Of a DNA stretch of 64,000 nt, positions 25,049 through 56,611 are shown piece by piece. The stretch is from positions 757-64,756 of the forward strand of contig JAFTLT010000045.1 of assembly GCA_017452785.1 (NCBI GenBank), given 5' to 3'. The stretch is from Clostridia bacterium (lineage in GTDB: Bacteria; Bacillota; Clostridia; Oscillospirales; Acutalibacteraceae). The notes under the pieces were generated by a model. That model had not been told where the DNA came from, ran no database searches, and saw only the letters and a program-made list of their open reading frames with translations. How positions within the stretch are numbered: the first letter of the stretch is position 1; every line of letters begins with the position of its first letter. Made by a program: the position numbers and the translations under genes.

Positions 25049-25166
25049 CTTCAGGGAACGGCTTTGCAGCGGCTCCATTCAAAGCTCCGTTTTTGCGGAG
25101 CTTTGTGAGGCATTGCCGTGCCGAATTTATTCGGCTATGGAGCCGCCGCAGAGCTGTTTCCTGAAG
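25049..25166 (+). ncRNA. Candidate structured RNA or repeat: a 118-nt three-way junction upstream of spoIIGA
   Basis: A 30-nt closing stem (25049-25078 with 25137-25166) in which 3 of 4 mismatches are G-U compatible only on the + strand. Inner hairpins are 25080-25105 (10 bp) and 25120-25135 (6 bp). Confidence 0.45.
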
Positions 25167-25234
25167 GGATTTTGTTATTCTCCACTGTTTTCCGACATAA
25201 AACCTGCCCTATCCCGATTATAATATTAAAGGTG

Positions 25235-26143
25235 ATGCATTTGACTCAGGTTATATATGCCGATGTGCTGTTTTTACTTAACACTTACATAACTTACGCT
25301 CTTATACTTCTCACAGCCCTTATTTCAGGCCGTTCTTCCTCAAGGCTCAGAATGGCACTGGCTTCTTTAGCAGGCGGCTTATACAGTCTCATAATCCTCA
25401 TACCGTGCATAAGTGACTCTATTTTAACATTTTCAAGGCTGCCTGCCGCTTTTATTTTTATCGCCATAGGTTTCGGCAGAGTACCGCCAAAAACCTTTGC
25501 CAGACTTTTTTGCAGCTTTTTTCTTGTCAACTTTATTTTTGCCGGGCTTATGACAGCCTTATGGTACCTTGCAGCCCCTACAAACATATATATGGGCGGT
25601 TTTGTGGTTTACTTTGACATTAAACCGCTGACTCTCATTATGCTCACAGCAATCTGCTACTTCATTATAAAAGGCATCAACCTTGCAGTTAAAATAAGAC
25701 AGCCAAAAAACACAATTTTTGATATGGAATTGCATATAAATGATAAAGTGACAGCTCTTAAAGCCTTTTATGACACAGGTAACAGTCTGACTGACCCATT
25801 CACAGGCAAAGCCGTTATAATAGTCAGCCGCTATGTTTTAAAGAATATTTTTCCTGAGGATAAGGAGCTTTTCGCCTCAGCACAAAAAGAAAATATCACA
25901 CTTCGCTTTTTGCCCTGCTCAGGGGTTACGGGCTCAAGGCTTCTGCCGTGCTTCAAGGCAGACAAGGTGTGCCTGAAAAGTATATCTCACCGTGTAACCA
26001 TAGACGAACCTGTCATTGCACTGACACAGGAAGCTATTAACGGCGGCAGCTTCGGTGCAATACTTCCGAAAGACATATTTATAAACGAAAAGGGAGAAAT
26101 TTATTATGAAGATAAACAGCTTGTTTTTACTGATAAGAAATAA
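25235..26143 (+). CDS. spoIIGA: Sigma-E processing aspartic peptidase SpoIIGA
   Basis: Five N-terminal TM segments, the catalytic [11 protein letters not shown] motif, and a 3' end overlapping sigE. The start is ATG 25235 or TTG 25241; the track's upstream extension covers the structured element. Confidence 0.85.
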
Positions 26144-26861: not shown

Positions 26862-28013
26862 TTACAGTATAAACAGGAATACAAGTGAACCGAGTCCCAT
26901 TGAGAAAAGTGTGCCGATAATGAAACCGAGAAGGTTAATTGCAAAAACTGAACCTGCAGCAATTTTTATGCCCATTGTCGATTCAGCCTCAGAGATATTC
27001 TGCCACTGCAGATAAACGTCTCTGCCCTGATGATAATACTGATCAAGACCGACTGTATCTTTGCTGCTTGCCTGAGTGAAATTACAATCCTTAAGTCCGT
27101 TTGCAAAAAGTGTTGCCATTTCTTTATCGTTGAAGGTAATTCTTGCAACAATTCTTAACTCATCGGCAGGCTCAACCTGTCTTAAATGACCGGGCTTAAA
27201 GCCTGTGCACCACCAATAGTAGTCATATTCACGAGTAAACTCTCTTGTCCATTCACCGTTGATCTGCTGATGATAAAGAGTCAACTCCATCTTCGGCCAA
27301 TATTTCTGATCAGCTGTTTTAAAGAATGTGAAGTAGCCTGTTTCTCTGTCGTCAGCCTTCTTATGATATATGCCTATTTCGCCGCCGTAGAAAATATATC
27401 CGTACTGACCCTTCCAAAGCTGCACCATAAATTCCTGATTATCGTATTCAAAGAAAACTCTTGCATAGTCATATTCAAGGGCAATATAAGGTGAAGCTAT
27501 ATCATAAATTCTTGCAAAACCCAGTGCATCCTGCCAGCAGTCTTTATCGTTGGTGTAATAATAGTCATCTTGATAGCTATACTGATAACTGAGCACCTGA
27601 TTTTTCATAAGGAAGTTTTTGATAACATTATCGCTTGTAACAACGTTGACAGCATACACCGCCTCAAGCTGTTTGCCGGCAACGGTAGCTTTGGCTGTAA
27701 TAAAAGATCTTCCTACACTTACACCTTTGACCTTGCCGTCACTGCTGACTGTTGCAACGTCCTCATTTGATGATGACCATGTGATTGAGGGCTGCACCTC
27801 TACGCCTGTTACCTCTGCCTCAAGCTGCAGCTTTCCACGCACCTTAACATTAAAGTCCTCTGCGGATATAACTATTTTGTACTTCTGTGCATTGATGAAA
27901 TCTTCAGGTATGCCTGTTGTGATGCCTGCTGCGGAAGCTGAAACCGTTAAACTCAGCACTGCAAGCATTAAAACAATAAAAAATAAACCCAACTTTTTAA
28001 GAGTATTTTTCAT
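26862..28013 (-). CDS. Secreted, C-terminally membrane-anchored protein: Big_2 Ig-like domain plus an aromatic-rich domain (possibly DUF4474)
   Basis: Signal peptide, a Big_2 block (ITWSSSNEDVATVSSDGKVKGVSVG), then MVQLWKGQYG...GGEIGIYH...YWWCTGF, and a hydrophobic C-terminus. Confidence 0.6.
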   Translation of the reverse strand: MKNTLKKLGLFFIVLMLAVLSLTVSASAAGITTGIPEDFINAQKYKIVISAEDFNVKVRGKLQLEAEVTGVEVQPSITWSSSNEDVATVSSDGKVKGVSVGRSFITAKATVAGKQLEAVYAVNVVTSDNVIKNFLMKNQVLSYQYSYQDDYYYTNDKDCWQDALGFARIYDIASPYIALEYDYARVFFEYDNQEFMVQLWKGQYGYIFYGGEIGIYHKKADDRETGYFTFFKTADQKYWPKMELTLYHQQINGEWTREFTREYDYYWWCTGFKPGHLRQVEPADELRIVARITFNDKEMATLFANGLKDCNFTQASSKDTVGLDQYYHQGRDVYLQWQNISEAESTMGIKIAAGSVFAINLLGFIIGTLFSMGLGSLVFLFIL

Positions 28014-28138
28014 AAAATTCCTCTCCTGTTAATTTTTTCTAACTTTGCTATAATATCACATTATTAATTTTTTTGCAATAGCGAAACTATAGAAATTACC
28101 CTGTACAGCTAATACTGCACAGGGTAACGAACTGTTTT

Positions 28139-29272
28139 TTAAAAAATTATGAAGAGAGCAAGACGAACAAGACCAATCTTGAGCAGGAAATTAACAAGGC
28201 TGAGAAGGAATGTTGCACCGATACCTGCTTTGATTCCCATTGTGTTTTCTGCCTCTGAAATGCCCTGCCATGAAACAGAAACATCATTGCCGCCACCGTA
28301 GTAATATGAGTCAATGCCCATATACTGCTTTTCAGCTGCCTTTGTGAAGCCGCAATCACGGATACCGTTTGCAAAGAGAGTAGCCATTTCAGCATCTCTA
28401 AAGGTAATTGTTGCTTCAATTCTCAGTTCATCAGCAGGCTCATACTGTCTGAGTGTGCCCATAACAAAACCTGTGCACCACCAATATTTATCAACGGGAC
28501 GCTTGAAAAGAAGCTCATATTCATCAGGAGTGTCGCCCTCTTCTTCCTGATGATAAACTGACATATCCATTACGGGCCAGTATTTTTCACTTGCAGCTGC
28601 ATAGAAGGTGAAGGGGCTTGACTTCTGACCGTCTTCATCTCTGTTATAAATACCGATTTCACCGCCGTAAAGCACGCCGTACTGACCTTTCCAGAGCTGA
28701 ACCATAAAGTCTTCTTCATCATATGTAAAGAACACACGGATATAGTCATACTCCATGCCTACATAAGGAGCAACATAGTCATAAACTCTTGCAAAGCCGA
28801 AGTTTTTCTGCCATGATTCCTTGTCGTTTGCATAGTAGTAACCGTAGTCATAGTCGTACTGATAAGAAAGAACATTGTTGGTTTCAAGATAAGAATGGAT
28901 AATGTTTTCGTTCTTGACAACCTGAATAGGATAGCTCGCTGTGAGATTTTCTCCTGCAACCACTGCAGAAGCAGTAATTGTTGCATAGCCTTCCTTTTTG
29001 CCCTTGACTGCACCTGATGCACTGACTGTTGCAATGCTTTCATCAGAGGATTTCCATGTAATAGCAGGCTGAACCTCCACACCTGAAACAGTTGCCTCAA
29101 ACTGAGCAGTTTTGTTAACACCGACAAACATATAGTCTGCACTTATTGTCAGTTCATAGCCCTCAGCAAAGGTTGCAATGCCGTCATCTGCTGCACTTAC
29201 ACCCATAACACAAAGGCACATAAGCACTGCAGTAAACAAAATGAAAGCTGATTTCTTAAGTAAGTTTTTCAT
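28139..29272 (-). CDS. Paralog of 26862-28013 (Big_2 plus aromatic-rich domain, C-terminal anchor)
   Basis: Same architecture and conserved blocks (ITWKSSDESIATVSASGAVKG, MVQLWKGQYG, YWWCTGF). Confidence 0.6.
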   Translation of the reverse strand: MKNLLKKSAFILFTAVLMCLCVMGVSAADDGIATFAEGYELTISADYMFVGVNKTAQFEATVSGVEVQPAITWKSSDESIATVSASGAVKGKKEGYATITASAVVAGENLTASYPIQVVKNENIIHSYLETNNVLSYQYDYDYGYYYANDKESWQKNFGFARVYDYVAPYVGMEYDYIRVFFTYDEEDFMVQLWKGQYGVLYGGEIGIYNRDEDGQKSSPFTFYAAASEKYWPVMDMSVYHQEEEGDTPDEYELLFKRPVDKYWWCTGFVMGTLRQYEPADELRIEATITFRDAEMATLFANGIRDCGFTKAAEKQYMGIDSYYYGGGNDVSVSWQGISEAENTMGIKAGIGATFLLSLVNFLLKIGLVRLALFIIF

Positions 29273-36536: not shown

Positions 36537-36668
36537 TTATTCGTCTTCGGGAAGGGGTGCCATCCAGTCAGGATTAACTTCACCGCCCATAAGCTCGCAA
36601 AGGTATTCATAGAGCTTATTCCATAAATCCCAGAAAATTTCTTCAAATGTTGCAAATAATTTTTCCAT
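36537..36668 (-). CDS. Unannotated 43-aa aromatic, acidic helical peptide (a member of the small-peptide family)
   Basis: Sequence MEKLFATFEEIFWDLWNKLYEYLCELMGGEVNPDWMAPLPEDE. GGAGGA lies 8 nt before the ATG, a promoter is at 36699-36727, and a terminator follows the stop. Below the track's 60-aa cutoff. Confidence 0.6.
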   Translation of the reverse strand: MEKLFATFEEIFWDLWNKLYEYLCELMGGEVNPDWMAPLPEDE

Positions 36669-38432: not shown

Positions 38433-40385
38433 TCAGCGAAAAAAATCCATTACAAAATCAATGAGCTTAACTGCAATGTTATAAATTGTTGCAGCTGTGT
38501 TTCTGATGCCAAGCTTTTTAAGCAGGCTGCTTGCCTTTTCGCCAATAACCTCGTCGAGCTCCTTAGGCATATCAGCGTTAACATATGGCTCGCTTTCGTT
38601 GTACTCTGCCGCTTTACCGTTCATAAGAGTGAAATCAAAAGTTCTGTCACTGACAGGAGTGATTGTCTTATTCATAAATGAAATATTTATTTCAAAATTC
38701 TTTTTGCTTATTTCAGGAATTTCGCCTTCAAATGAAACTTCCTTGCTTTCACCGGGTGCAAGTGTGAAGGGTTCAAAGATGAAATCAAGACCGAGACCTC
38801 TTGCATTGATTGACATAACAGTTATATCATTTATAGCTGAGCAGTTGGTCACAACAAGAGTCTTATCAGCTGATGAGAGATAACCCTCTGTGCTCTTATT
38901 AAAGGCAGCATGCACACCGTGTGAGGGGTTCGTTGTCTCGTGGAACTGAGGATAACCTGCCATTGTGTGAGCGTCAAAGCTCTTGCTGCTGAGAAGCAGT
39001 GTGAACATAAGATTTTTTGTGAAGGGATCACTGATGGTCATTCCGTGATAATAGTTTTCAATAAACCATGTGTGGTGAGGAATATATGCAGTTGAGGCAT
39101 CCACTGTCATGCAGGGTGACACCTGATAATAGCCTGTGTCAACCTTCTGAGTATAGCCGTCAGCAAAACGCTTGCCAAATGGTGCTACAACTGCACCCGT
39201 TGCACCTGCTGTGGGGATAATAGCATCACTTGTTACTTCACCGCCACTGACGCTCTTTGCGTTATAGCCTGCCATAATATAGATGTTTGTGCCGATATCC
39301 TGAGCCTTTTTGAAGCCCTTGCCGTAGTAGTTTTCACCGTCAGGTGACATAATCTCATAGTGCATATAGTCGCTTTTTGCTATAAGATCTGCACTTTCAA
39401 CCGGGTCAAGAAGCTCAGCCTTAAGCTCTTCATAATGCTCAAGGGGAATGAAATCCCAAAGACTCTGCCAATACTGCACCACGCCGATAATCTGAGGCAC
39501 AAGCTCACCCACAATTGCATCAACAAAGCCTAACTGTTCAGCTTCAAGAAGGATATGATAGTCCTCCTCCCACTTCATGCCGTGCTCTATATATGTGAGC
39601 AGACCGTATTCGTCAAGCTTGCCGTTATTGCTCATAAGGTCATAAGCAAGGCTTGCACCGCCAAGAGCAGGAACTGTAAGCACTGCGTTATTTACTTTGC
39701 CCTCGTGACCATAAAGTGTGAGATATGTGCCTGTTGTCTGTCCGCCGTGTGAAACAGCAAGAAGATTAACCTTATCAACCTTATCCTTTTCAGCCTTGCC
39801 TTCGTTATGATGAGCAATTACATCATCAATAAATGCTCTCATTCTTCCGGCAATTTCAACGGGACCCTTACGGAAATCGCAGGTGAAAAGATAAAGGTTT
39901 TCGGCACCGATTTCTTCAGAGAGAATTGTCATCATTTCTGTTTCTTCGTTATGCTCACCATTCGGATAATTCTTTTGAATGTTTGCCCAGTTTGTTTCTT
40001 CGGCAGTGTTCAGATAGGTTGACAGCTCTTTTATACTTGAACCATCGGGATTGCAGCGAAGATTATCAAACAGCCAGTTAAAAGCTATGCCTACAACCTC
40101 AACTGCCGGTGAAATATCACCTGTTGCCACAAACTTTGCAGCGGCAGCAATAAGCTCTTCTTTGTATTCCTCAAGAGCCATCATAATCTGATCGCCTGTG
40201 TTGCCCCATGCGTGAATTTCCTCACCTGTTTCTTCATCAAAAAGACGGAGTGATGACGAGCTGTAGCCTGAAATCATGATAACAGGATATTTGTTGCCCT
40301 CATCTGCATAAACACCTGCAAAAGCAGCTGTGCTAAGTGAGAAGCACATAATAATTACAAGTAAAAGTGAAATAAGCTTTTTCAA
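38433..40385 (-). CDS. Secreted alpha/beta-hydrolase (lipase-like) with a C-terminal beta-rich extension. Downstream copy (2 of 2) of the tandem pair.
   Basis: Signal peptide, nucleophile elbow LLAVSHGGQTTG, and 650 aa collinear with the upstream paralog. Confidence 0.65.
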   Translation of the reverse strand: MKKLISLLLVIIMCFSLSTAAFAGVYADEGNKYPVIMISGYSSSSLRLFDEETGEEIHAWGNTGDQIMMALEEYKEELIAAAAKFVATGDISPAVEVVGIAFNWLFDNLRCNPDGSSIKELSTYLNTAEETNWANIQKNYPNGEHNEETEMMTILSEEIGAENLYLFTCDFRKGPVEIAGRMRAFIDDVIAHHNEGKAEKDKVDKVNLLAVSHGGQTTGTYLTLYGHEGKVNNAVLTVPALGGASLAYDLMSNNGKLDEYGLLTYIEHGMKWEEDYHILLEAEQLGFVDAIVGELVPQIIGVVQYWQSLWDFIPLEHYEELKAELLDPVESADLIAKSDYMHYEIMSPDGENYYGKGFKKAQDIGTNIYIMAGYNAKSVSGGEVTSDAIIPTAGATGAVVAPFGKRFADGYTQKVDTGYYQVSPCMTVDASTAYIPHHTWFIENYYHGMTISDPFTKNLMFTLLLSSKSFDAHTMAGYPQFHETTNPSHGVHAAFNKSTEGYLSSADKTLVVTNCSAINDITVMSINARGLGLDFIFEPFTLAPGESKEVSFEGEIPEISKKNFEINISFMNKTITPVSDRTFDFTLMNGKAAEYNESEPYVNADMPKELDEVIGEKASSLLKKLGIRNTAATIYNIAVKLIDFVMDFFR

Positions 40386-40397
40386 TTTGTTCTCTCC

Positions 40398-42362
40398 TTA
40401 TCTGTAAACAATCTTTGTCATCAGGTGAAGCACCTGAGCAAAAACATTGAATATATTTGAAGCAATTGCCTTTACACCTGTTTTTTCAAGCAGCGTGTTA
40501 GCTTCCTTCGGCAAAACATTGTCTATGTTTTTAGGATAATCTGCACCCACAAGCGGTTCATTTTCGTTGTACTGTGCCGCTTTGCCGTTCATCACAGTGA
40601 AGTCGAAGGTTCTTTCGCACACGGGAGTAACCTTGTTATTGAGATAGCTCACGGCAAGCTCAATATTTTTAAGGCTAACCTCAGGAATATCACCTTTGAT
40701 TTCAACTGACTTGCTCTCACCCGGTTTCAGGATAAAAGGCAGGAAGAAGAAATCAAAATCTGCACCGTAAACGCTGACTGAGCTGACAGTGATAACCGAA
40801 TCACAAGAGATATTTGTTATCACAAGCTCTTTATCCTGTGAGGAAACGAAGCCCTCTTTGCTACTATCAAATGCAGCAAAAACAACATGAGCAGGGTTTG
40901 TTGTGGCGTGGAACTGAGGATATTCTTTGAAAGAATTGACCGTGTAGCCCTCACCGTCTGTCAGAAGAAGCTTGCAGGCAAGTGAGAATGTGAAATCATC
41001 CTTATAGGTCATTCCGTGGTGGAAGTTTTCAATATACCATGTGCGCTCAGGCAGATATCCTGTTGATGCGTCAACTGTCATTGAGGGTGACACCTGATAA
41101 AAGCCTGTGTCAACCTTCTGAGTATATCCGTCACTAAAACGCTTGCCGTAAGGTGCAGCAACTGCCCCTGTGGCGCCCTCTATAGGTATAATAGAGTCAG
41201 AGCTTACAGGCATACCTGAAACAATCTGCACATCATATCCTGCTAAAATATAGATGTTTGTGCCGACTTCTTCAGCCTTTTTAAAGCCCTTGGCATAATA
41301 ATGTTCGCCTTCAGGTGACATAATTTCATAGTGAACGAAATCGCTTTGTGCAATAAGACCTGCATTCTTCACCGGGTCAAGGTTTTTCTCTTTCATTGCC
41401 TCATAGTATTCAATCGGCACAAAATCCCAAAGACTGCCCCAACAACCTAATATAGGCATACATTCCGGCAATAAAGCTTCTACCAATTCATCAAGGAAGC
41501 CTAACTGATTAGCCTGAAAGAAAAGATCAAGATCTTCTTCAATAATAAAGCCATGCTGCAAAAACTGCAGAAGCTCCGCATCATTAAAGTCGGCGTCACC
41601 GTTAAAAGCATCATAAGCTATGCCTGCACCACCAAGGGCAGGAACAGTGAGAATAGCATTATTTACCTTACCCTCATGGCCGTAAAGTGTAAGATAAGTG
41701 CCTGTAACCTGACCACCGTGGGAAAGGGCATAGATGTTAACTTTGTCAATCTTGTCCTTTTGTGCTCTGCCCTCGTTATGATATTCAATTACATCATCGA
41801 TATATGCTCTGAGAGAATTTGCAATTTCAACAGCACCCATACGGAAGTCACATGTAAAAACATAGGTGTTTTCCTTGCCTATTCTTGCACCGATGTCATC
41901 CATTATCTCTTTTTCTGCCTGATAGTCGCCTTCGGGGTACTTCTCGGCAAGATTTGCATAGTTGGTCTCTTCGGGAGTATGTACGTAATTATATACAGGT
42001 ACCGAAGGTGTGCCGTCATCATTACACTTCATATCAGCAAAAATTCTTCTGAAGCCGGCACCAAGTGTTGCTGCAAGCTCTGTTGCGTCACCTGTTGCAA
42101 AGAACCTTGCAGCTTGGGCAAGTATCTTTTCCAGCATACCGTCCTGAGCGCCTGCGGAAATCTGTCCGACGGCATCGCCCCAGACCATAACCTTTTCGCC
42201 CGTTACCTCGTCAATTTTATAATATGACGATGAAGTATAACCCGGCACCATAATTACGGGATACTTTGTCAGCTCTGCGTTTTCCTTTTCAGCAGCAAAA
42301 GCTATGGGGAAAGCACTGAAAACCAACAATAAGCAAAGTAACAACACTGTTAGTTTTTTCAT
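40398..42362 (-). CDS. Secreted alpha/beta-hydrolase (lipase-like). Upstream copy (1 of 2) of the tandem pair.
   Basis: Signal peptide, IYALSHGGQVTG, and long blocks identical to 38433-40385 (LTLYGHEGKVNNA.LTVPALGGA, YTQKVDTG.YQVSP.MTVDAST). Only a 12-nt gap separates it from the next gene. Confidence 0.65.
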   Translation of the reverse strand: MKKLTVLLLCLLLVFSAFPIAFAAEKENAELTKYPVIMVPGYTSSSYYKIDEVTGEKVMVWGDAVGQISAGAQDGMLEKILAQAARFFATGDATELAATLGAGFRRIFADMKCNDDGTPSVPVYNYVHTPEETNYANLAEKYPEGDYQAEKEIMDDIGARIGKENTYVFTCDFRMGAVEIANSLRAYIDDVIEYHNEGRAQKDKIDKVNIYALSHGGQVTGTYLTLYGHEGKVNNAILTVPALGGAGIAYDAFNGDADFNDAELLQFLQHGFIIEEDLDLFFQANQLGFLDELVEALLPECMPILGCWGSLWDFVPIEYYEAMKEKNLDPVKNAGLIAQSDFVHYEIMSPEGEHYYAKGFKKAEEVGTNIYILAGYDVQIVSGMPVSSDSIIPIEGATGAVAAPYGKRFSDGYTQKVDTGFYQVSPSMTVDASTGYLPERTWYIENFHHGMTYKDDFTFSLACKLLLTDGEGYTVNSFKEYPQFHATTNPAHVVFAAFDSSKEGFVSSQDKELVITNISCDSVITVSSVSVYGADFDFFFLPFILKPGESKSVEIKGDIPEVSLKNIELAVSYLNNKVTPVCERTFDFTVMNGKAAQYNENEPLVGADYPKNIDNVLPKEANTLLEKTGVKAIASNIFNVFAQVLHLMTKIVYR

Positions 42363-44573: not shown

Positions 44574-44654
44574 ATTAAGCAAAGAGAGCCTTAATCCACT
44601 CGATGAGCTGCATAAGATGGTCGAGACCAAACATTGTAACTATTTTTTCCCACA
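44574..44654 (-). CDS. Unannotated 26-aa leaderless amphipathic peptide
   Basis: Sequence MWEKIVTMFGLDHLMQLIEWIKALFA. GGAGGA lies 7 nt before the ATG, with a promoter at 44709-44737 and a terminator at 44500-44530. Confidence 0.55.
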
Positions 44655-44708
44655 TATTAATTTCCTCCTTTACTGCTTATTTAAGGGATGTTTTTCCTTA
44701 CAACTGAC

Positions 44709-44737
44709 ATTGTATATTAAACTTCACTATTTGTCAA
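44709..44737 (-). promoter_or_regulatory. Sigma-A promoter of the 26-aa mini-gene
   Basis: Minus strand: TTGACA, 17-nt spacer, TACAAT. Confidence 0.55.
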
Positions 44738-44850
44738 TAAAATATAAACATTTTTAATTATTTGTGCAAAATAACCTCACATTTATTACACCTTCGGTGT
44801 CTTAAACACAACATATTGCGTTATTTTGTTTTATTGATCACTGTATATAG

Positions 44851-44880
44851 AAAAAACAAAACCCGCCACTAGGGCAGGCT
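44851..44880 (-). terminator. Intrinsic terminator after the 36-aa mini-gene
   Basis: Minus-strand CCTGCC-ctagt-GGCGGG followed by TTTTGTTTTTT. Confidence 0.65.
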
Positions 44881-44913
44881 TTGTCTATTAAACAATTGTT
44901 TAATCGCGATAAA

Positions 44914-45024
44914 TTATTCAGCGTCTTTAAGGTTGCCGTTTTCATCCTTTTCGATGCCAAAGATTGCAAGAAGCTTGTAGATGAATTCCCAAAGCATTGC
45001 GTACATATCTTCAAATACCTGCAT
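44914..45024 (-). CDS. Unannotated 36-aa leaderless aromatic amphipathic peptide
   Basis: Sequence MQVFEDMYAMLWEFIYKLLAIFGIEKDENGNLKDAE. GGAGGA lies 8 nt before the ATG at 45024. An in-frame ATG at 45039 lies inside the SD region, so it is less likely. Confidence 0.6.
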   Translation of the reverse strand: MQVFEDMYAMLWEFIYKLLAIFGIEKDENGNLKDAE

Positions 45025-45077
45025 TATAGTTTCCTCCATATCAAGATTTGAAAGAGTATTACCTCTAACTTGATTAT

Positions 45078-45106
45078 ATTATATATCAGCCATAGATAAA
45101 TGTCAA
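45078..45106 (-). promoter_or_regulatory. Sigma-A promoter of the 36-aa mini-gene
   Basis: Minus strand: TTGACA, 17-nt spacer, TATAAT, with an AT-rich UP-like region shared with the next cassette. Confidence 0.65.
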
Positions 45107-45144
45107 TAGTTTATTCAAAAAATTTTAATATTTCACTTTAACAT

Positions 45145-45170
45145 GAAGAAAAAGCCACCCGAAGGCGGCC
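45145..45170 (-). terminator. Intrinsic terminator after the 30-aa mini-gene
   Basis: Minus-strand GGCCGCC-ttcg-GGTGGCT followed by TTTTCTTC. Confidence 0.65.
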
Positions 45171-45205
45171 TTTTCTTTTTAAACAATTGTTTAAACTAGT
45201 TAAAA

Positions 45206-45298
45206 TTATTCTGCATCCTTAAAGTATGCGAATGCCTTGTAAAGATATTCCCAGATTGCCTGCCATACTTCTTCAAACTTTGCGAAAAATTCAGCCAT
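45206..45298 (-). CDS. Unannotated 30-aa leaderless aromatic amphipathic peptide
   Basis: Sequence MAEFFAKFEEVWQAIWEYLYKAFAYFKDAE. GGAGGA lies 8 nt before the ATG, with a promoter at 45352-45380 and a terminator at 45145-45170. Confidence 0.6.
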   Translation of the reverse strand: MAEFFAKFEEVWQAIWEYLYKAFAYFKDAE

Positions 45299-45351
45299 TA
45301 TAGTATCCTCCATATTTAGATTTACTAAGAGACACCTCTTAATATGCTTAT

Positions 45352-45380
45352 ATTATATATCAGCATAATATAAAAGTCAA
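45352..45380 (-). promoter_or_regulatory. Sigma-A promoter of the 30-aa mini-gene
   Basis: Minus strand: TTGACT, 17-nt spacer, TATAAT. Confidence 0.65.
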
Positions 45381-45485
45381 TAGTTTATTCAAAAATATTT
45401 AATATTTATTACCTGTTTTCCTCTTGTACAAAGCACTACCCTTTTCGTCAGCCGTTCTGCACTCAGCACTCTGCGTTCTACACTT

Positions 45486-45510
45486 AAAAAGGCTACCCTT
45501 GCGGATAGCC
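45486..45510 (-). terminator. Intrinsic terminator after the Cys-rich protein gene
   Basis: Minus-strand GGCTATCC-gcaa-GGGTAGCC followed by TTTTT. Confidence 0.7.
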
Positions 45511-45524
45511 TTTTAGCTTTTCAA

Positions 45525-46010
45525 TTACTGGATTGAACCGAGAACCTCGTCAAGTCTGAGGAATTCGAAGATGCTGTTGAAGAAATTATCAAATACATCT
45601 GAAATTCTCTTAAGAATCTTCTGGAAGCCACTGATGAAATCATCCTGTGCGTCTTCTACTGCATCCTCATCAACAGGTCCGAAAATGGAACCGCTGCCAG
45701 TGTTTTCATTGTTGGGGTCACAGCAATCGCAACCACAGCCGCAGGGGAAAATGCCTGTGCAATATGCGCAGCAGAGTGAACCGTCATATGTACCGTCTGC
45801 ATTGCCGTCTTTAGCACATGATGTGAGATAAGACTTATCAATGTTGGGGCAAAGAACACAGCAGTGACATGAACCTAAAGGTGCAGCTTTGTGATCGTCA
45901 CATGTGCATTTGTCAGTAACAACAGGCTCCTCAACTACAACTGCAAAAGCCATTGTGCCCATTGCAAAAACCATAGCAACCGCTAAAAGAATTGAAATTA
46001 CTTTTTTCAT
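45525..46010 (-). CDS. Secreted Cys-rich protein (15 Cys in 63 aa) with an acidic linker and a C-terminal aromatic amphipathic helix
   Basis: Signal peptide MKKVISILLAVAMVFAMGTMAFA. The core is CTCDDHKAAPLGSCHCCVLCP...LCCAYCTGIFPCGCGCDCC and the tail is FISGFQKILKRISDVFDNFFNSIFEFLRLDEVLGSIQ. It has its own TTGACT-17-TATAAT promoter. Confidence 0.7.
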   Translation of the reverse strand: MKKVISILLAVAMVFAMGTMAFAVVVEEPVVTDKCTCDDHKAAPLGSCHCCVLCPNIDKSYLTSCAKDGNADGTYDGSLCCAYCTGIFPCGCGCDCCDPNNENTGSGSIFGPVDEDAVEDAQDDFISGFQKILKRISDVFDNFFNSIFEFLRLDEVLGSIQ

Positions 46011-46097
46011 TGGAATCTCCTCCTAAATTTTGGCGGAAAGTATAAGCCGCCTTTATAGATACATTATAGTAAATAAAACAGCAAAAGTCAAGACGCA

Positions 46098-46137
46098 ATA
46101 AAAAAAATCAGGAATTCCAAAAAAGAATTCCTGATTT
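46098..46137 (-). terminator. Intrinsic terminator after the 637-aa gene
   Basis: Minus-strand AATCAGGAATTC-tttttt-GGAATTCCTGATT followed by TTTTTTT. Confidence 0.8.
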
Positions 46138-46140
46138 ATA

Positions 46141-48054
46141 TTAAACTCTAACCGTATTACTGTATCCGCCATAGCCGGTTACACCGTCATCCTTACGGAG
46201 TGTTCTTATTCTGAAGCGATATGTACCGTCAGCTTTTAGACCCTCAACTGTGTATGAAAGAGTATCACTGTCAACAGTCTGAACCTTGATAAGCTCATCG
46301 CCTGAAACTCTGTAGATAACATAATGGGTTGCACCGCTTACTTTATCCCATGACAGCTTGACCTTGCTGCCTGTCTGCTTTGCTGTCAGTTCTGCCGCCT
46401 TAGGGCCTGCAACACCTGTTATATATGAAGGCTCACTGCTATAATATTCCGAGCCTACCTTTGCAGTGGCATGAACCTTGAATTTATAGCTTCTGCCTGC
46501 CGTGAGCTTGAAGGTATATGAGGTTTCATCTGTAACGGCAACCTTTTTATAGCTTTCGCTCTCACTGTCATATCTGTAAATAGAGTACTGTGTTGCTCCG
46601 CTGACCTTTTTCCACGCAAGACCCAATTTGCCGGAGGTGGAATAATTCTGCTTAAGAGCTGTAACCTTATCGGGTACAACAGTAATTGTCACACTGCTTT
46701 TAACTTCACCCTTATCGGCAGCCGTGCAGGTGATTTTAACTGTGCCGTACTTTTTAGCTGTCACCTTACCCTTTGAGTTGACCACTGCAACAGAGGTGTC
46801 GGAGCTTTTCCATGTGAGAGTGCCGTCGGTTACATCGGCAGGCTCAACAGCAGCCTTGATCACCGCACTGTCACCCTTGGCAATTTTTGCAGGAGCATCA
46901 AGCTCAACGGCTTTTGCGAAAACAATTTCCTCAGCCTCAAGAACCTCAAAGTGATAGTCTTCACTTGCTATTTTCCAACCTGAAACCAATGAATTTGCAG
47001 CATATACTCTTGCAGAATATCTGCCTGCTTCATCGATTGTAATTGTCTTTGCTCTTTTATTTTTGCTGACGGTATATTTCTGAACTATGTCGCCGTCTTC
47101 ATTATAAATATAAAGCCAATATTTGCCTGCGCCGCAGTATTCACGCCATGAAAGAGGAATTTCTTCGCCCACAGTGTATATCTCAGTTTTATTTTCAAAG
47201 TCAGGCTCTTCAATTTTTCCGCCTAAATATTCAGCGTAGTTGAGAGCACACCAGCCAACAGTGTTTCCAAAAAGGATTTTGCCCCAAAGGTATTCACCGT
47301 CATCATATTTGTCATAAACCTTAAACTTGGTTCCGTCATATATTTTATCAACAACATTTGAATCTGTTGTGTGCTCTGCTCTGACATTGAGAGTTGCACC
47401 AACCATTTTCCAATCCTCGTGAGGATCGTTTTTTGCTATGTCGGTTTCTTCCGTGTCTTCAGGCTTAATTGAATCAGTGTTTTTATAGAAATAAAGGTCT
47501 GTGTTTTTTCTGTTGTTGCCCTCAAGTCTGTAAACATAGCTGAAGCCCTGAATATCTGATATATCCATAACGCCCCAACGAATCTGACATCTGCCGACCC
47601 AGTTGCAGTCCGTGAAAGAAATCTTATTGCCGCTGACACCTGTAACACAAAGTGAGTGACCGTTCCAGCGGTAGCGGATAATATCACCGACACGCAGTGA
47701 AGAAGCCTTAAGGCTTGTCACCTTTACGAAATTATTTCTGGGCATTATGCCGGTGATTTCATAAGCTATTTTATGGGCGTACCCCATACACTGAATTGCA
47801 TTGTCGAAATTATTGCAGTCACACGATTTATTCCATGCACAGCTGCCATGACTTGCGCAGGGTGTGGATGTTACACCGTCAGGGTTGTTTTTGCCTTTAT
47901 CAACGTTATTCCAATATTTGCCGTTCGGGAATTTTTCAACTAATGAAGCTAATATAGTGAGAGTGTCGTCAGCAGCATTACCGACAAAGCTGACACTCAT
48001 CGCAGGCATAATAACCAAAAGGGCAAGAAGCAGGCATAAAAGTTTTTTAAACAT
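46141..48054 (-). CDS. Secreted multidomain protein: N-terminal papain-fold Cys/His hydrolase-like domain (CHAP/NlpC-P60-like), SH3b, Big_2 and two Fn3 domains
   Basis: Signal peptide. Candidate nucleophile context AIQCMGYAHKIA with a downstream NGHSLCV. An SH3b-like block (LNVRAEHTTDSNVVDKIYDGTKFKV...GWCALNY), a Big_2 block (LTWKSSDTSVAVVNSKGKVTAKKYG), and two W.KVSGAT.Y.IYR Fn3 modules. Confidence 0.6.
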   Translation of the reverse strand: MFKKLLCLLLALLVIMPAMSVSFVGNAADDTLTILASLVEKFPNGKYWNNVDKGKNNPDGVTSTPCASHGSCAWNKSCDCNNFDNAIQCMGYAHKIAYEITGIMPRNNFVKVTSLKASSLRVGDIIRYRWNGHSLCVTGVSGNKISFTDCNWVGRCQIRWGVMDISDIQGFSYVYRLEGNNRKNTDLYFYKNTDSIKPEDTEETDIAKNDPHEDWKMVGATLNVRAEHTTDSNVVDKIYDGTKFKVYDKYDDGEYLWGKILFGNTVGWCALNYAEYLGGKIEEPDFENKTEIYTVGEEIPLSWREYCGAGKYWLYIYNEDGDIVQKYTVSKNKRAKTITIDEAGRYSARVYAANSLVSGWKIASEDYHFEVLEAEEIVFAKAVELDAPAKIAKGDSAVIKAAVEPADVTDGTLTWKSSDTSVAVVNSKGKVTAKKYGTVKITCTAADKGEVKSSVTITVVPDKVTALKQNYSTSGKLGLAWKKVSGATQYSIYRYDSESESYKKVAVTDETSYTFKLTAGRSYKFKVHATAKVGSEYYSSEPSYITGVAGPKAAELTAKQTGSKVKLSWDKVSGATHYVIYRVSGDELIKVQTVDSDTLSYTVEGLKADGTYRFRIRTLRKDDGVTGYGGYSNTVRV

Positions 48055-48203: not shown

Positions 48204-48725
48204 TTAAACAGTGAGTCTGACAAAAAAAGCAGACAGCACAAGGCTGAGGAAATCAGCTGTGAGCCCTGCCATTAGAGTGTGACGAGTATTTTTTATGCCG
48301 ATTGCAGAATAATAAACCGTAACCGCATAAAGTGTTGTGTCTGTTGAGCCCATAACAACACTTGCAACCTGACCTATAAAGGAATCCGGCCCATGAGTTT
48401 TCAGCACACTTTCAAAAAGCGTAAGTGAACCGCCGCCTGAAATGGGACTTAGCAGTGCCATAGGTGTTATTTCATCGGGTACACCAAAAAGAGATGTAAC
48501 AGGAGCAAATAATGCCGACACAATTTCCATTGCTCCGCTTTCTTTAAGCATTGTCACTGCAACCACAAGTCCCGTTATGCTCGGAAGCAGCTCATAAACA
48601 GTGTGAAGTCCCTTTCTAGCCCCCGACATAAAGCAGTCAAAAACTTTAACCTTCTTCACAAGACCGAAAAGAACGATGCCCACCACCATAACGGGCAATA
48701 TGTAGCTGCCGAAATTATCAGGCAT
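48204..48725 (-). CDS. spmB: Spore maturation protein B (nucleoside-recognition-domain membrane protein)
   Basis: Polytopic ~173 aa protein paired with and overlapping spmA. ATG at 48725 follows AAAGGAG. Confidence 0.75.
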   Translation of the reverse strand: MPDNFGSYILPVMVVGIVLFGLVKKVKVFDCFMSGARKGLHTVYELLPSITGLVVAVTMLKESGAMEIVSALFAPVTSLFGVPDEITPMALLSPISGGGSLTLFESVLKTHGPDSFIGQVASVVMGSTDTTLYAVTVYYSAIGIKNTRHTLMAGLTADFLSLVLSAFFVRLTV

Positions 48726-48726
48726 A

Positions 48727-49332
48727 TTATGCACTCCTTTGTTTGCAGTCTTGACTGCTTTTTACCCTGTTGCCGATTTTTGCCACGGCAATTGCTGCTG
48801 CAAGCGCACAAAATGAGGTTAGAAAAGCTGCAGGCATTATTTCCATTGGCTTTGCACTGCCGTATTGACCTCTCATTGTGGCAACGGTTGTGGGGATAAT
48901 ATGCATTGCCGCCGTATTCATAACAACAAAAACAACCATCTCATTGCTTGCCACTGTTTTGTTTTCATTTATATCCTGAAGCCGTCTCATAGCCTCAAGA
49001 CCCAGTGGTGTTGCCGCATTACCGAGGCCGAGAATATTTGCCGTTATGTTCATGGAAATTGCTTCAAGGGCATATTTTTCTTTTCTCAGGCGTGGAAAAA
49101 TCATACCAACAATCGGTGACATAAGCCTTGAAAATACCTTTGTCATGCCCGACTGCTCAGCTATTTCCATAACACCCCCCCAAAGGCAAAGCATAGAGAC
49201 AAGTCTTAAAAGCAGCTGCACTGCACTTTCAGCTCCGTCAATTACAGCAGAAGACAGTGCATCAATTCTGCCCGTGGCAACTGCTGAGATAAAAGACAAT
49301 AGCAACAAAACCGGAAAAACATAGTTCATCAT
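48727..49332 (-). CDS. spmA: Spore maturation protein A
   Basis: Polytopic protein with the Gate-domain motif ANILGLGNAATPLGLEAM, immediately upstream of spmB. Confidence 0.75.
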   Translation of the reverse strand: MMNYVFPVLLLLSFISAVATGRIDALSSAVIDGAESAVQLLLRLVSMLCLWGGVMEIAEQSGMTKVFSRLMSPIVGMIFPRLRKEKYALEAISMNITANILGLGNAATPLGLEAMRRLQDINENKTVASNEMVVFVVMNTAAMHIIPTTVATMRGQYGSAKPMEIMPAAFLTSFCALAAAIAVAKIGNRVKSSQDCKQRSA

Positions 49333-49389
49333 AAAAATCACCTGAAATAATATATGTTATTTCCCCTTTATAAATGACAAGACCGCCCT

Positions 49390-55251: not shown

Positions 55252-55614
55252 TCAGGCAGCTGCAGGAGCTGTTGCTGCATCGGGAGCTGTTGTTTCTTCC
55301 TCAGCGGAAGAATCGGAATTTGCAATCATTTCGGCAATCTGATGAATAATTTCATCTGTGTCAATAACACCAAGTGCCATTGCAATTTTAACAATAACTT
55401 TAACGAGCTTGAGAGCAATTTTTGCAATCTTTGACGCAGGGCCTAACGTCCACACGGGAAGGTCAAGAAGCCAATCAAGTGCACCTGCTTCTTCGTCACT
55501 TTCCAAAACAGCTGTTGTTTCTTCGGGTGCTGCTGTTTCTTCAGCGGCAAAAGCAACTGTTGCAACTGAGAATGTCATAATCACTGCGAGAATTAATGCT
55601 AAAAACTTTTTCAT
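55252..55614 (-). CDS. Small secreted protein: signal peptide, acidic stretch, Lys-rich amphipathic helix, and a T/A/P/E tail. Downstream copy (2 of 2) of the pair.
   Basis: MKKFLALILAVIMTFSVATVAFAAE...ALDWLLDLPVWTLGPASKIAKIALKLVKVIVKIAMALGVIDTDE...EEETTAPDAATAPAAA. ATG at 55614 follows GGAGGT. Confidence 0.6.
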   Translation of the reverse strand: MKKFLALILAVIMTFSVATVAFAAEETAAPEETTAVLESDEEAGALDWLLDLPVWTLGPASKIAKIALKLVKVIVKIAMALGVIDTDEIIHQIAEMIANSDSSAEEETTAPDAATAPAAA

Positions 55615-55714
55615 TGTCACATACCTCCTGTAAATTAGTTAGCAGATATAACACCTAAAAAATCCCCAAGGCAACACCTCAAAGGATATTGCCTAAGGGG
55701 AAGACTTTGCAAAC

Positions 55715-56125
55715 TTATGCAGCAGCTGCGGCTGTTGTTGCTTCGGGAGCTGTTGTTTCTTCTTCAGCAGCATCATTATTGCCAACGCCAAGGCCGTCAA
55801 CGAAATCAAGGATGATAGCGATGCCGTCTGCAGGATCAATGCCGAAAGCACTACAGATCTTGAAATAAACCTTTACGAGCTTAAGAGCAATCTTTGCAAT
55901 TTTGAATGCAGGCTTAAGGCTCTCAGCGGGGAGATCAAGAATCCATGCATAGTCGCCAAGCATTTCGTCTAATTCATCAGTAACGCTGCCCTCTTCTTCG
56001 CCTTCAGCGGGAGCTGTTGTTGTTCCCTCTTCAGGAGCAACTGTTGTGTCCTCTGCAGCAAAAGCAACTGTAGCAACTGAGAAAGTCATGATAAGTGCAA
56101 GAACTAATGCTAAAAACTTTTTCAT
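55715..56125 (-). CDS. Small secreted protein, paralog of 55252-55614. Upstream copy (1 of 2) of the pair.
   Basis: A near-identical signal peptide, then YAWILDLPAESLKPAFKIAKIALKLVKVYFKICSAFGIDPADG...EEETTAPEATTAAAAA. It has its own TTGACA-17-TATACT promoter. Confidence 0.6.
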   Translation of the reverse strand: MKKFLALVLALIMTFSVATVAFAAEDTTVAPEEGTTTAPAEGEEEGSVTDELDEMLGDYAWILDLPAESLKPAFKIAKIALKLVKVYFKICSAFGIDPADGIAIILDFVDGLGVGNNDAAEEETTAPEATTAAAAA

Positions 56126-56224: not shown

Positions 56225-56596
56225 TTATTCTTCTTTCAGAGCCTCAGCTATCTGCTGTCTGAGCTGTTCCTTCTTCTGCTCTGATAAAACTCTGTAAGAA
56301 AGCAGCAGTCTTCTTTCATCCTTTGAAAGGTAAGCAATCGGGTCAACATTATCCTCTGCAACCATATCTGCTTTGCCCAACCTTTCAGGGTGATTGTTTT
56401 CCTCTGTGCCGAGAATGTATCCGATAGTTGCATTATACATATTAGAGAGTTTTTCAAGAGTTTCAATAGGCGGATTTGTTGAACCGGTTTCGTATAATGT
56501 GTAGGTTGTTCTGTCAACACCAAGCACATTTGCAATATCCTGCTGTGTGAGCTTGTGGGCTTTTCTGATTCTTCTGAGACTTTCGGGTACTGTCAT
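56225..56596 (-). CDS. XRE-family helix-turn-helix transcriptional regulator
   Basis: HTH_3 motif LRRIRKAHKLTQQDIANVLGVDRTTYTLYETG. ATG at 56596 follows AAGGAAGTG. Confidence 0.85.
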   Translation of the reverse strand: MTVPESLRRIRKAHKLTQQDIANVLGVDRTTYTLYETGSTNPPIETLEKLSNMYNATIGYILGTEENNHPERLGKADMVAEDNVDPIAYLSKDERRLLLSYRVLSEQKKEQLRQQIAEALKEE

Positions 56597-56611
56597 TATA
56601 ACCACTTCCTT

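Follow-up and report, generated by a model that had tools for sequence, protein, structure and literature searches.

A putative module of a Cys-rich secreted protein, small acidic peptides and a 3′ palindrome in Acutalibacteraceae, beside a separable wall-hydrolase-like gene

Tandem sets of two to four leaderless peptides of 30-50 aa, falling into distinct, non-redundant classes, are found in the leaderless bacteriocins of the aureocin A70, enterocin L50 and garvicin KS type. The known members are strongly cationic and co-transcribed, are accompanied by transporter and immunity genes, and are often plasmid-borne. The staphylococcal phenol-soluble modulins (PSMs) are likewise small, leaderless amphipathic helices, some of which (the beta type) are anionic. 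Amphipathic helices also serve as C-terminal membrane anchors of exported enzymes, as in low-molecular-weight penicillin-binding proteins such as PBP5 of Escherichia coli, and the chaplins of Streptomyces comprise long and short forms of one surface-active domain, all of them with signal peptides and forming amyloid from a hydrophobic beta-type domain. In Bacillus subtilis, the gene of a peptidoglycan-modifying enzyme lies beside spmA and spmB in the dacB-spmA-spmB operon. Finally, LspU of Staphylococcus aureus, a leaderless amphipathic peptide encoded beside the gene of a secreted enzyme, traps exoproteins in surface aggregates (PMC12607899). Here, positions 44574-48054 were analysed of a 64,000-nt stretch (the window) of contig JAFTLT010000045.1 from a Clostridia bacterium of the Acutalibacteraceae (assembly GCA_017452785.1). 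This interval carries the genes of a secreted 637-aa wall-hydrolase-like protein, of a Cys-rich secreted protein and of three small peptides, P30, P36 and P26.

In form, the three peptides and their homologues resemble the known leaderless amphipathic arrays; they differ in charge, in their monocistronic layout, in the presence of an exoprotein with a homologous helix and in a palindrome at the 3′ end. As in PSMs and LspU, small leaderless helices of the 20-45-aa type (helicity being predicted) are encoded by paralogues lying side by side, with strong expression signals. The present peptides differ in showing no sequence similarity to that group and no match to the PSM and delta-lysin families of Pfam, and in belonging to a different phylum-level lineage, with no agr system seen and no Pmt-type ATP-binding cassette (ABC) exporter in the locus. 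They are also monocistronic, all acidic and unusually aromatic, and neither the Cys-rich exoprotein with its homologous helix nor the invariant palindrome has a counterpart among PSMs. The tandem, leaderless arrangement in distinct classes is shared with the bacteriocins named above; unlike these, the peptides are anionic, monocistronic and encoded at chromosomal, syntenic positions, with no transporter or immunity gene nearby. The PBP5-type anchor may be paralleled by the conserved amphipathic helix at the end of the Sec-exported Cys-rich protein, which also tags a pectate-lyase-like protein, and by the amphipathic ends of neighbouring lipase-like proteins. We know of no anchor system in which free-standing leaderless copies of the anchor helix are encoded next door. 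Like the chaplin domain, the helix is a short module that occurs both stand-alone, in several paralogues, and at the C-terminus of larger secreted proteins; chaplins differ in not being acidic helices, and there is no sequence relation. Searches of the literature, profile libraries, solved structures, plasmid and phage records and RNA families returned no description of the Cys-rich protein, the peptides, the palindrome or g120, a small secreted protein often encoded directly upstream of the Cys-rich gene.

Separation of the 637-aa gene from the Cys-rich and peptide genes in relatives

The interval is best read as two unrelated units brought side by side by a lineage-specific rearrangement, the second of which, comprising the Cys-rich gene, the peptide genes and the palindrome, forms the conserved module. 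We give this reading a probability of roughly 0.6. Its composite nature follows from related loci, in which the 637-aa gene is separated or absent while the Cys-rich gene and the peptides move together.

Related loci were collected from draft metagenome-assembled genomes (MAGs) of Acutalibacteraceae by scanning one genome per species, yielding 63 loci (individual loci are numbered with the prefix L). As each locus was entered by way of its Cys-rich gene or of g120, arrays that lack a Cys-rich gene would escape this sampling. A synteny map was built with the window proteins, and the upstream test was carried out on 43 loci having at least 5.5 kb of upstream sequence.

The gene of a 637-like protein was directly adjacent to the Cys-rich gene in 4/43 loci (a fifth, L010, has a shorter flank), lay about 3 kb upstream in 12 and was absent within 8 kb upstream in the remaining 27. 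Direct adjacency was confined to the clade of the window (L006, L007, L008, L010 and L021; Cys-rich protein identity at least 64%). In L011, where uvrC, a helix-turn-helix (HTH) gene and g120 intervene, the order is spmA-spmB-637like-uvrC-HTH-g120-CysRich-three peptides-ybaK, and in L026 and L047 the order spmAB-g120-CysRich is kept without a 637-like gene. A hydrolase gene was also found close to Cys-rich genes lacking peptides (L050, L056-59, L069, L072). The Cys-rich gene and its peptide array stayed together through at least six genomic contexts. Among these were positions beside a divergent extracytoplasmic function (ECF) sigma factor gene, beside a MerR gene, behind dnaG-rpoD and beside a DUF2804 gene, and the hydrolase gene never came along; behind a GtrA-like/glycosyltransferase pair, the Cys-rich gene occurred without peptides and without hydrolase. 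Reverse sampling through g120 gave the Cys-rich gene as the next gene in 4/4 loci (L069-L072), in the same order and with peptides present or absent. The original prediction, made for this interval from its sequence, named unlinked scattering of the components in relatives as a ground for refutation; this applies to the hydrolase, while the Cys-rich gene and the peptides stay linked.

The ancestral order of the module is uvrC-HTH-g120-CysRich-peptideA-peptideB-peptideC-ybaK, and the module is lineage-specific to Acutalibacteraceae. In the window, the order reads uvrC-HTH-g120a-g120b-lepA-hemN-like-patatin-B12 radical SAM-spmA-spmB-637-CysRich-P30-P36-P26; a block of about 9 kb, from lepA to spmAB-637, splits the usual HTH-g120-Cys-rich-peptide succession. 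The interval had further been called an accessory island, a term that no longer applies, as no mobile-element signature was found and comparative genomics parts the hydrolase from the rest. A low GC content at 44.5-45.5 kb falls where AT-rich promoters and terminators, and not coding sequence, account for most of the DNA; since no mobile-element genes were seen either, it was not taken as a sign of transfer and horizontal acquisition was rejected.

Within the window, the list of open reading frames (ORFs) confirmed five co-oriented minus-strand genes in the predicted order of transcription (Table 1). The predicted flanks were likewise recovered: a Gate-domain pair of SpmA/SpmB size upstream, its naming resting on domain size and sequence inspection, and a convergent M20 peptidase gene downstream. 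Start codons of P30, P36 and P26 were picked by Shine-Dalgarno spacing and by comparison with orthologues. The prediction that each unit has its own promoter and terminator stood for the terminators, a hairpin with U-run lying behind 5/5 units (z = -3.9 to -6.7 against shuffled controls), and for four of the promoters: a consensus scan gave sigma-70-type sequences matching 11-12/12 positions before the Cys-rich gene, P30, P36 and P26, and no promoter of the 637-aa gene's own at the scan threshold. The P30 and P36 cassettes are tandem duplicates, promoter, 5′ untranslated region (UTR) and 3′ end included. As predicted, no phage, transporter or immunity gene was seen in the locus contexts, and the plasmid and phage collections gave no match. 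A regulator gene, also said to be lacking, is indeed lacking inside 44574-48054; the XRE-family HTH gene that usually accompanies the module is displaced, together with two g120 copies, to 55.2-56.6 kb of the same window.

Table 1. Positions of the module, the 637-aa gene and associated features in the window
Feature	Position	Strand	Description
spmA-spmB	48204-49341		SpmA/SpmB-sized Gate-domain gene pair; upstream flank of the 637-aa gene
637-aa gene	46141..48054	-	Secreted multidomain protein; ORF list
N-domain of 637-aa protein	47500..47973	-	Catalytic-type domain, residues ~28-185; alignment and AlphaFold2 model
Terminator after 637-aa gene	46105..46137	-	-17.8 kcal/mol, z = -6.7; between 637-aa and Cys-rich genes
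Promoter of Cys-rich gene	46063..46091	-	Sigma-70 type, TTGACT-17-TATAAT, 11/12; equivalent in L011 and L020
Cys-rich gene	45525..46010	-	Secreted protein, 161 aa, 17 Cys; ORF list
C-terminal helix of Cys-rich protein	45540..45662	-	Amphipathic, residues ~117-157, GFQKILKRISDVFDNFFNSIFEFLRLDEVLG; conservation and helix prediction
Terminator after Cys-rich gene	45482..45517	-	-18.6 kcal/mol, z = -4.0
P30 promoter	45352..45380	-	TTGACT-17-TATAAT; consensus scan
P30 gene	45206..45298	-	Class A peptide MAEFFAKFEEVWQAIWEYLYKAFAYFKDAE, net charge -3
Palindrome, copy 1	45179..45194		TTAAACAATTGTTTAA; 12 nt after P30 stop, directly before P30 terminator
Terminator after P30	45146..45177	-	-24.5 kcal/mol including palindrome hairpin, z = -6.2
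P36 promoter	45078..45106	-	TTGACA-17-TATAAT, 12/12
P36 gene	44914..45024	-	Class B peptide MQVFEDMYAMLWEFIYKLLAIFGIEKDENGNLKDAE, net charge -5
Palindrome, copy 2	44888..44903		TTAAACAATTGTTTAA; 11 nt after P36 stop codon
Terminator after P36	44854..44886	-	Hairpin scan and folding
P26 promoter	44709..44737	-	TTGACA-17-TACAAT; consensus scan
P26 gene	44575..44655	-	Class C1 peptide MWEKIVTMFGLDHLMQLIEWIKALFA, net charge -1
Terminator after P26	44507..44532	-	Hairpin scan and folding
HTH gene	56225..56605	-	XRE family, 126 aa; conserved upstream neighbour of g120 (uvrC-HTH-g120)
g120 gene pair	55252-55620, 55715-56125	-	Secreted proteins of ~120-136 aa, in tandem
43-aa peptide gene	36537..36668	-	Stand-alone acidic aromatic peptide MEKLFATFEEIFWDLWNKLYEYLCELMGGEVNPDWMAPLPEDE, between ybaK and rimM; ORF

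Peptide arrays, palindrome and Cys-rich protein

In each locus, small ORFs that lie downstream of the Cys-rich gene and have a ribosome-binding site were collected, and the resulting peptides were clustered, counts being based on 55 non-duplicate loci with at least 700 bp of downstream sequence. At least one peptide of the family was present in 41/55 loci and at least three in 32/55, the number being exactly three in 29/55; across species, arrays range from two to ten tandem leaderless peptides. One single similarity component held 100 peptides from 43 loci, and smaller components of the same type were found besides. All 123 peptides were net-acidic (mean charge -4). They measured 26-52 aa (median 37), contained about 18% Phe, Trp and Tyr, were nearly free of Cys and gave helical hydrophobic moments of 0.3-0.7 in 18-residue windows, helicity itself being predicted. 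None showed a signal peptide or a hydrophobic stretch of 18 or more residues, a charged residue occurring at every 3-4 positions. The classes keep the order A-B-C across loci. Class A has the consensus MAEFFxKFExxWxxxWxYxYKV... and class B ...F-K/E-DMYAMLWEFIYxxLxIFGIExD..., while class C takes one of two alternative forms, C1 (MWxxIVxMFGLDHLxxLIxWIKxLFA) or C2 (MLENxETYxxGIVDWFKKLFTIIFEFLGDIGVDA). The window peptides matched the hidden Markov models (HMMs) of their classes with E-values of 9e-17 (P30, class A), 3e-21 (P36, class B) and 2e-18 (P26, class C1). Pfam, NCBIfam and PADLOC contained no match to the peptides, and a PDB sequence search gave none for P36.

In codon comparisons, in which synonymous change was near-saturated, the ratio of non-synonymous to synonymous change (pN/pS) was 0.28-0.35 for P30, 0.41-0.44 for P36 and 0.2-0.29 for P26, compared with 0.28 for the Cys-rich gene, 0.21 for the 637-aa gene and 0.11 for spmB. 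Because orthologues occur in 41/55 loci and pN/pS stays at 0.2-0.44, the small ORFs are, as judged from these comparisons, translated genes under purifying rather than diversifying selection. In L011 and L020, each peptide again has its own promoter (11-12/12), and in 36 other array loci a terminator likewise adjoins the end of the A and B genes. Given the near-perfect promoters before every gene of the module, these genes are probably among the most strongly expressed of their hosts.

At the C-terminus, -Ala-Glu was found in 24/123 peptides (about 1% expected from composition) and a final Glu in 43/123; P30 and P36 of the window both end in ...KDAE, which may be a C-terminal recognition signal. 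The window further encodes a stand-alone 43-aa peptide near ybaK (Table 1), with a weak match to the class A HMM (E = 0.02). Its gene was called in L001, and a 40-aa ORF lies at the same position in L003. The peptide is tentatively a fourth paralogue and may be a relic of the ancestral array site by ybaK.

A 16-bp palindrome, TTAAACAATTGTTTAA, follows the P30 and P36 genes. These two copies were the only ones in the 64-kb window when up to two mismatches were allowed, with 0.08 expected by chance. In 775 kb of non-duplicate related loci (L001-L071), 48 exact and 11 two-mismatch copies were counted, all of them within peptide arrays and no more than 1.5 kb downstream of the Cys-rich gene. Each copy follows an A- or B-class gene at 11-22 nt from its stop codon, with 0-3 nt left up to the terminator stem. 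Nine of the 11 variants read TAAAACAATTGTTTTA, a symmetric double change that keeps the dyad and is the only common variant, and 14/16 positions carry the full information content of 2 bits. Neighbouring terminator stems differ freely between loci and show compensatory changes, and the proteins encoded share 35-45% identity; the base-for-base conservation of the palindrome while both have diverged points to a sequence-specific constraint. The palindrome was absent from loci without peptides and from the promoters of the Cys-rich, g120 and HTH genes. No Rfam model matched the array above any gathering score, and two double-palindrome patterns gave 0 matches in metagenome contigs. The element would be a sequence-specific cis element controlling the A and B cassettes, either as the operator of a dimeric DNA-binding protein or as an RNA site in the 3′ UTR.

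The Cys-rich protein consists of a signal peptide (MKK, hydrophobic core, AFA|VV; signal peptides were called throughout by sequence inspection), a Cys/His domain, an acidic linker and a conserved C-terminal helix. In the homologue alignment, the Cys domain shows about 15 invariant or near-invariant Cys residues, plus His. The family comprises 38 clusters at 90% identity, with 61 representatives among 1.84 billion proteins; its named members all stem from uncultured Clostridia or Acutalibacteraceae MAGs, mostly of ruminant and other animal guts. Pfam, NCBIfam, PADLOC and PDB held no match, and tblastn against plasmid and phage collections returned none. The AlphaFold2 (AF2) model had a pLDDT of 46.

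An HMM built from the C-terminal helix alone ranked nine class C2 peptides above all of about 5,300 shuffled sequences, with E-values down to 2e-6. On this evidence at least one peptide class, C2, is by homology a free-standing copy of the helix of the exoprotein. Direct homology of the three window peptides to the Cys-rich C-terminus was not significant (E 0.8-3), only the C2 class reaching significance. The same helix forms the C-terminal tag of the pectate-lyase-like protein P0230, and the Cys domain is found repeated two or three times in tandem as well as at the N-terminus of BspA-type leucine-rich repeat (LRR) surface proteins; together, the presence of the domain on surface LRR proteins and of the helix as an exoenzyme tag points to an extracytoplasmic site of action. 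Two such BspA-type LRR proteins with an N-terminal Cys-rich domain, P0223 and P0225, end in CxCNCHK-GF..F.WKIINFFQK.F-....C.CG..H, an aromatic helix flanked by Cys and His that is matched by no sorting-domain model of NCBIfam.

The 637-aa protein and neighbouring genes

The 637-aa protein is composed of a signal peptide, an N-terminal domain, an SH3b domain, an Ig-like region, a Big_2 domain and two fn3 domains. The last domains, already named in the original prediction, were found by Pfam (SH3_3 at residues 221-270, Big_2 at 383-450, fn3 twice). Residues 1-210 gave no Pfam or NCBIfam match at E ≤ 0.1, and the CHAP/NlpC-P60-like Cys/His domain proposed there is supported at the level of fold and motif. 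In an alignment of 17 homologues, Q88, C89, G91 and D124 were invariant and H133 nearly so; the motifs common to them are FPxGKYWN, a small Cys/His cluster, Gln-Cys89-x-Gly, Gly-Asp124, His133 and D-C/A-N. The AF2 model of the domain, computed from the homologue alignment, reached a pLDDT of 83.8. In this model, helix 88-101 begins with Gln88-Cys89, strand 134-141 begins after His133, and Asp148/Asn150 of the D-C/A-N motif lie on the following strand. Foldseek searches of PDB gave CHAP or NlpC-P60 proteins for all of the top 19 matches (lowest E 5e-4, highest probability 1.0, TM 0.38-0.52), the best being Ly7917, MAP1204 P60, PlyGRCS, LysIME-EF1, RipA and MepS, together with the CHAP-type Gsp amidase. 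These results support a papain-like CHAP/NlpC-P60 fold with a catalytic-type Cys/His pair and a third polar residue. On the strength of the model, the domain is a divergent branch of CHAP/NlpC-P60 that lies outside existing sequence profiles and is recognisable by fold only. The protein would act as a Sec-exported cell-wall enzyme, an amidase or endopeptidase of the CHAP/NlpC-P60 Cys/His type, with SH3b for wall binding and the Ig/fn3 domains as spacers.

Next to spmAB, a 637-like gene was found in 10/16 loci with upstream sequence (e.g. among L006-L016, L021 and L046). By its position, the 637-aa gene appears to belong with spmA-spmB, which would suggest a role in remodelling of the wall or spore cortex. 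The arrangement recalls the dacB-spmA-spmB operon in that a peptidoglycan-hydrolase-like gene adjoins spmA-spmB. It differs in the reversed order, the enzyme gene lying downstream, in the type of enzyme, a CHAP/NlpC-P60 Cys peptidase versus a D,D-carboxypeptidase in Bacillus, and in the lack of a sporulation-type promoter recognisable by eye upstream of the 637-aa gene. Elsewhere in the window, spoIIGA lies at 25118-26143, and a DUF1540 gene, sporulation-related like spmAB, is located near the locus. Ig/fn3 repeats as in the C-terminal half of the 637-aa protein also occur in a 1329-aa fn3-rich protein and in two Big_2 + DUF4474 proteins (16401-20390 (-), 26862-29272 (-)).

The g120 proteins have a signal peptide, one or more acidic linkers, a conserved cationic amphipathic core and an acidic tail. 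About 25 loci have a g120 gene immediately before the Cys-rich gene; in the window, the g120 pair is displaced about 9 kb upstream. The family counts more than 166 clusters, all from Clostridia, and apart from the signal peptide gave no match in Pfam, NCBIfam or PADLOC. Its PGAP name, acid shock protein, was rejected, only the signal peptide resembling the Asr model. A helix module shared with the peptides, as the common 'IFG-V/I-D' look might suggest, was rejected as well, no HMM match exceeding the shuffled controls.

Three paralogous secreted proteins of 490-654 aa are encoded at 40398-42362 (-), 38436-40385 (-) and 22554-24032 (-). The 492-aa paralogue matches LCAT and alpha/beta-hydrolase profiles, and the trio looks lipase-like; for the 654-aa member, a PDB sequence search gave no match. 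Both larger paralogues carry an amphipathic segment at the C-terminus (...IFNVFAQVLHLMTKIVYR and ...IYNIAVKLIDFVMDFFR), and about 13 related loci have homologues within a few kb on the downstream side of the Cys-rich/peptide module; such C-terminal helices of exoenzymes may be linked to the peptide system. Calcium loops of the EF-hand or dockerin type, considered for 'DENGNL' tails, were dismissed as the consensus was not fitted.

Possible role of the module and alternative explanations

For the module, the following mode of action is proposed. Peptides of the P30/P36/P26 type would be made in large amounts as amphipathic helices and would associate, at the surface of membrane or wall, with homologous or complementary helices of exported proteins, namely the C-terminus of the Cys-rich protein and possibly g120. 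With three peptides as the usual number, one protein-borne helix would complete an assembly of four helices. The outcome would be like that of PSMs and LspU, i.e. surface aggregates and retention of exoproteins rather than lysis or killing. Such an envelope assembly of peptides and helix, with the palindrome as its cis control element, is put forward tentatively, by analogy, as a possibility that falls clearly short of an expectation. A wider version is more speculative still, and we consider it unlikely: a previously unrecognised envelope system of Acutalibacteraceae in which the peptides would be exported along a non-classical route, a hetero-oligomeric helical surface scaffold formed with the homologous protein-borne helix (possibly joined by the g120 helix) would be a new type of anchor or matrix for exoproteins with the same C-terminal tag, and a dedicated palindrome-reading factor would set production.

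Several observations weigh against an envelope module of this kind. The peptides lack a signal peptide and no transporter is linked to them in any context, which poses a problem of topology for co-assembly, as the Cys-rich protein is exported and the peptides may remain cytoplasmic. Their net negative charge is unusual for binders of anionic bacterial membranes. With E-values of 0.8-3 against the Cys-rich helix HMM, the window's P30, P36 and P26 are tied to it transitively, through the peptide classes, and no significant similarity links g120 to the peptides (HMM against shuffled controls). In 14/55 loci, the Cys-rich gene has no peptides, so the protein can work alone, and its AF2 model is uninformative for a fold search. 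The possible paralogue at 36.5 kb (E = 0.02) stands by itself, away from the Cys-rich gene. As for the other unit, the functional link between spmAB and the 637-aa gene consists of adjacency and analogy with Bacillus.

According to the original prediction, the hydrolase might form, along with the Cys-rich protein and all three peptides, one module for lysis, antagonism or mother-cell lysis, in which the membrane would be permeabilised by the peptides and the wall cut by the hydrolase. The genes are indeed co-oriented and adjacent in the window and in L006, L007, L008, L010 and L021, the hydrolase fold is real, and a 637-like gene lies within 8 kb upstream in 16/43 loci and also in L069 and L072. 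Outside this one clade, however, uvrC and the HTH gene intervene or the hydrolase is absent; relocated modules never carry it, and it adjoins Cys-rich genes that have no peptides (L050, L056-59, L069, L072). In addition, a strong terminator separates the 637-aa and Cys-rich genes, the hydrolase has its own Sec signal peptide and hence needs no holin, and the peptides are anionic and without transmembrane segment. The comparative data largely refute this account, and we now hold it to be very improbable. A holin-endolysin cassette in the strict sense was rejected, given the lack of a transmembrane peptide, the Sec signal of the hydrolase, the terminators between units, the missing linkage and the absence of phage genes or matches in phage collections. 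Somewhat less improbable, yet still poorly placed, is a leaderless bacteriocin made of several peptides, like aureocin A70, enterocin L50 or garvicin KS, its transporter being encoded elsewhere and the Cys-rich protein acting as accessory or immunity factor. Two to ten tandem leaderless peptides of 26-52 aa in distinct conserved classes, strong expression signals and a copy number that differs between species would all suit such a system. Its peptides should hardly be acidic throughout, however (0/123 have a net charge of zero or above, the mean being -4), and the surrounding 5-10 kb lack an ABC transporter or immunity gene in all of at least six contexts. Each peptide moreover forms a monocistronic unit and no operon. 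Across many species, the locus keeps a syntenic chromosomal position beside housekeeping genes instead of a patchy distribution, purifying selection is moderate and diversification is not apparent, and plasmid and phage collections yielded no match.

An action of the peptides inside the cell stays a serious rival, because they have no export signal and no linked exporter in any context, even if we rate its chances as low. They could be morphogenetic peptides like SpoVM or CmpA, located at the forespore or the inner membrane face, small acidic partners or chaperones that mask exported amphipathic helices before secretion, or antagonists of a regulator. Since spoIIGA and spmAB are encoded in the window, the organism is taken to sporulate; spmAB and DUF1540 are nearby genes related to sporulation, and acidic peptides are charge-complementary to the cationic helix of g120. 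These neighbours are, however, not conserved with the module, and the promoters match the vegetative sigma-70 consensus at 11-12/12 positions and not the sigma-E or sigma-K types (sporulation promoters being judged by eye). SpoVM-type peptides are cationic whereas those studied here are acidic; on promoters and charge together, membership in the SpoVM/CmpA type was rejected. Furthermore, homology ties the C2 class to a helix of an exported protein, that helix also being a tag on another extracytoplasmic enzyme, which argues for a shared and probably extracellular site. That the cassettes are small RNA genes (promoter, about 200 nt, terminator) with untranslated ORFs and the palindrome as functional core can practically be discarded. 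Each cassette is short and monocistronic, with a conserved 3′ hairpin region and a palindrome far more conserved than the coding sequence. Yet strong Shine-Dalgarno sites lie at the correct spacing, the frames have stayed open despite saturated synonymous change (pN/pS 0.2-0.44), the classes are recognisable as protein (HMM E 9e-17 to 3e-21) and Rfam gave no match. A dual function of the cassettes, as mRNA and RNA element, may apply.

The locus illustrates how adjacency in a single genome can mislead, the account of a hydrolase paired with membrane-active peptides having dissolved on comparison with relatives. What emerges as the second unit, the Cys-rich/peptide/palindrome module, is carried by a common group of Clostridia of ruminant and other animal guts, and the palindrome offers a clean handle for finding the factor that controls it. 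If the peptides are surface-active or scaffold-forming, the PSM concept would be extended to strict anaerobes, and the C-terminal helix would supply a portable tag for surface display.

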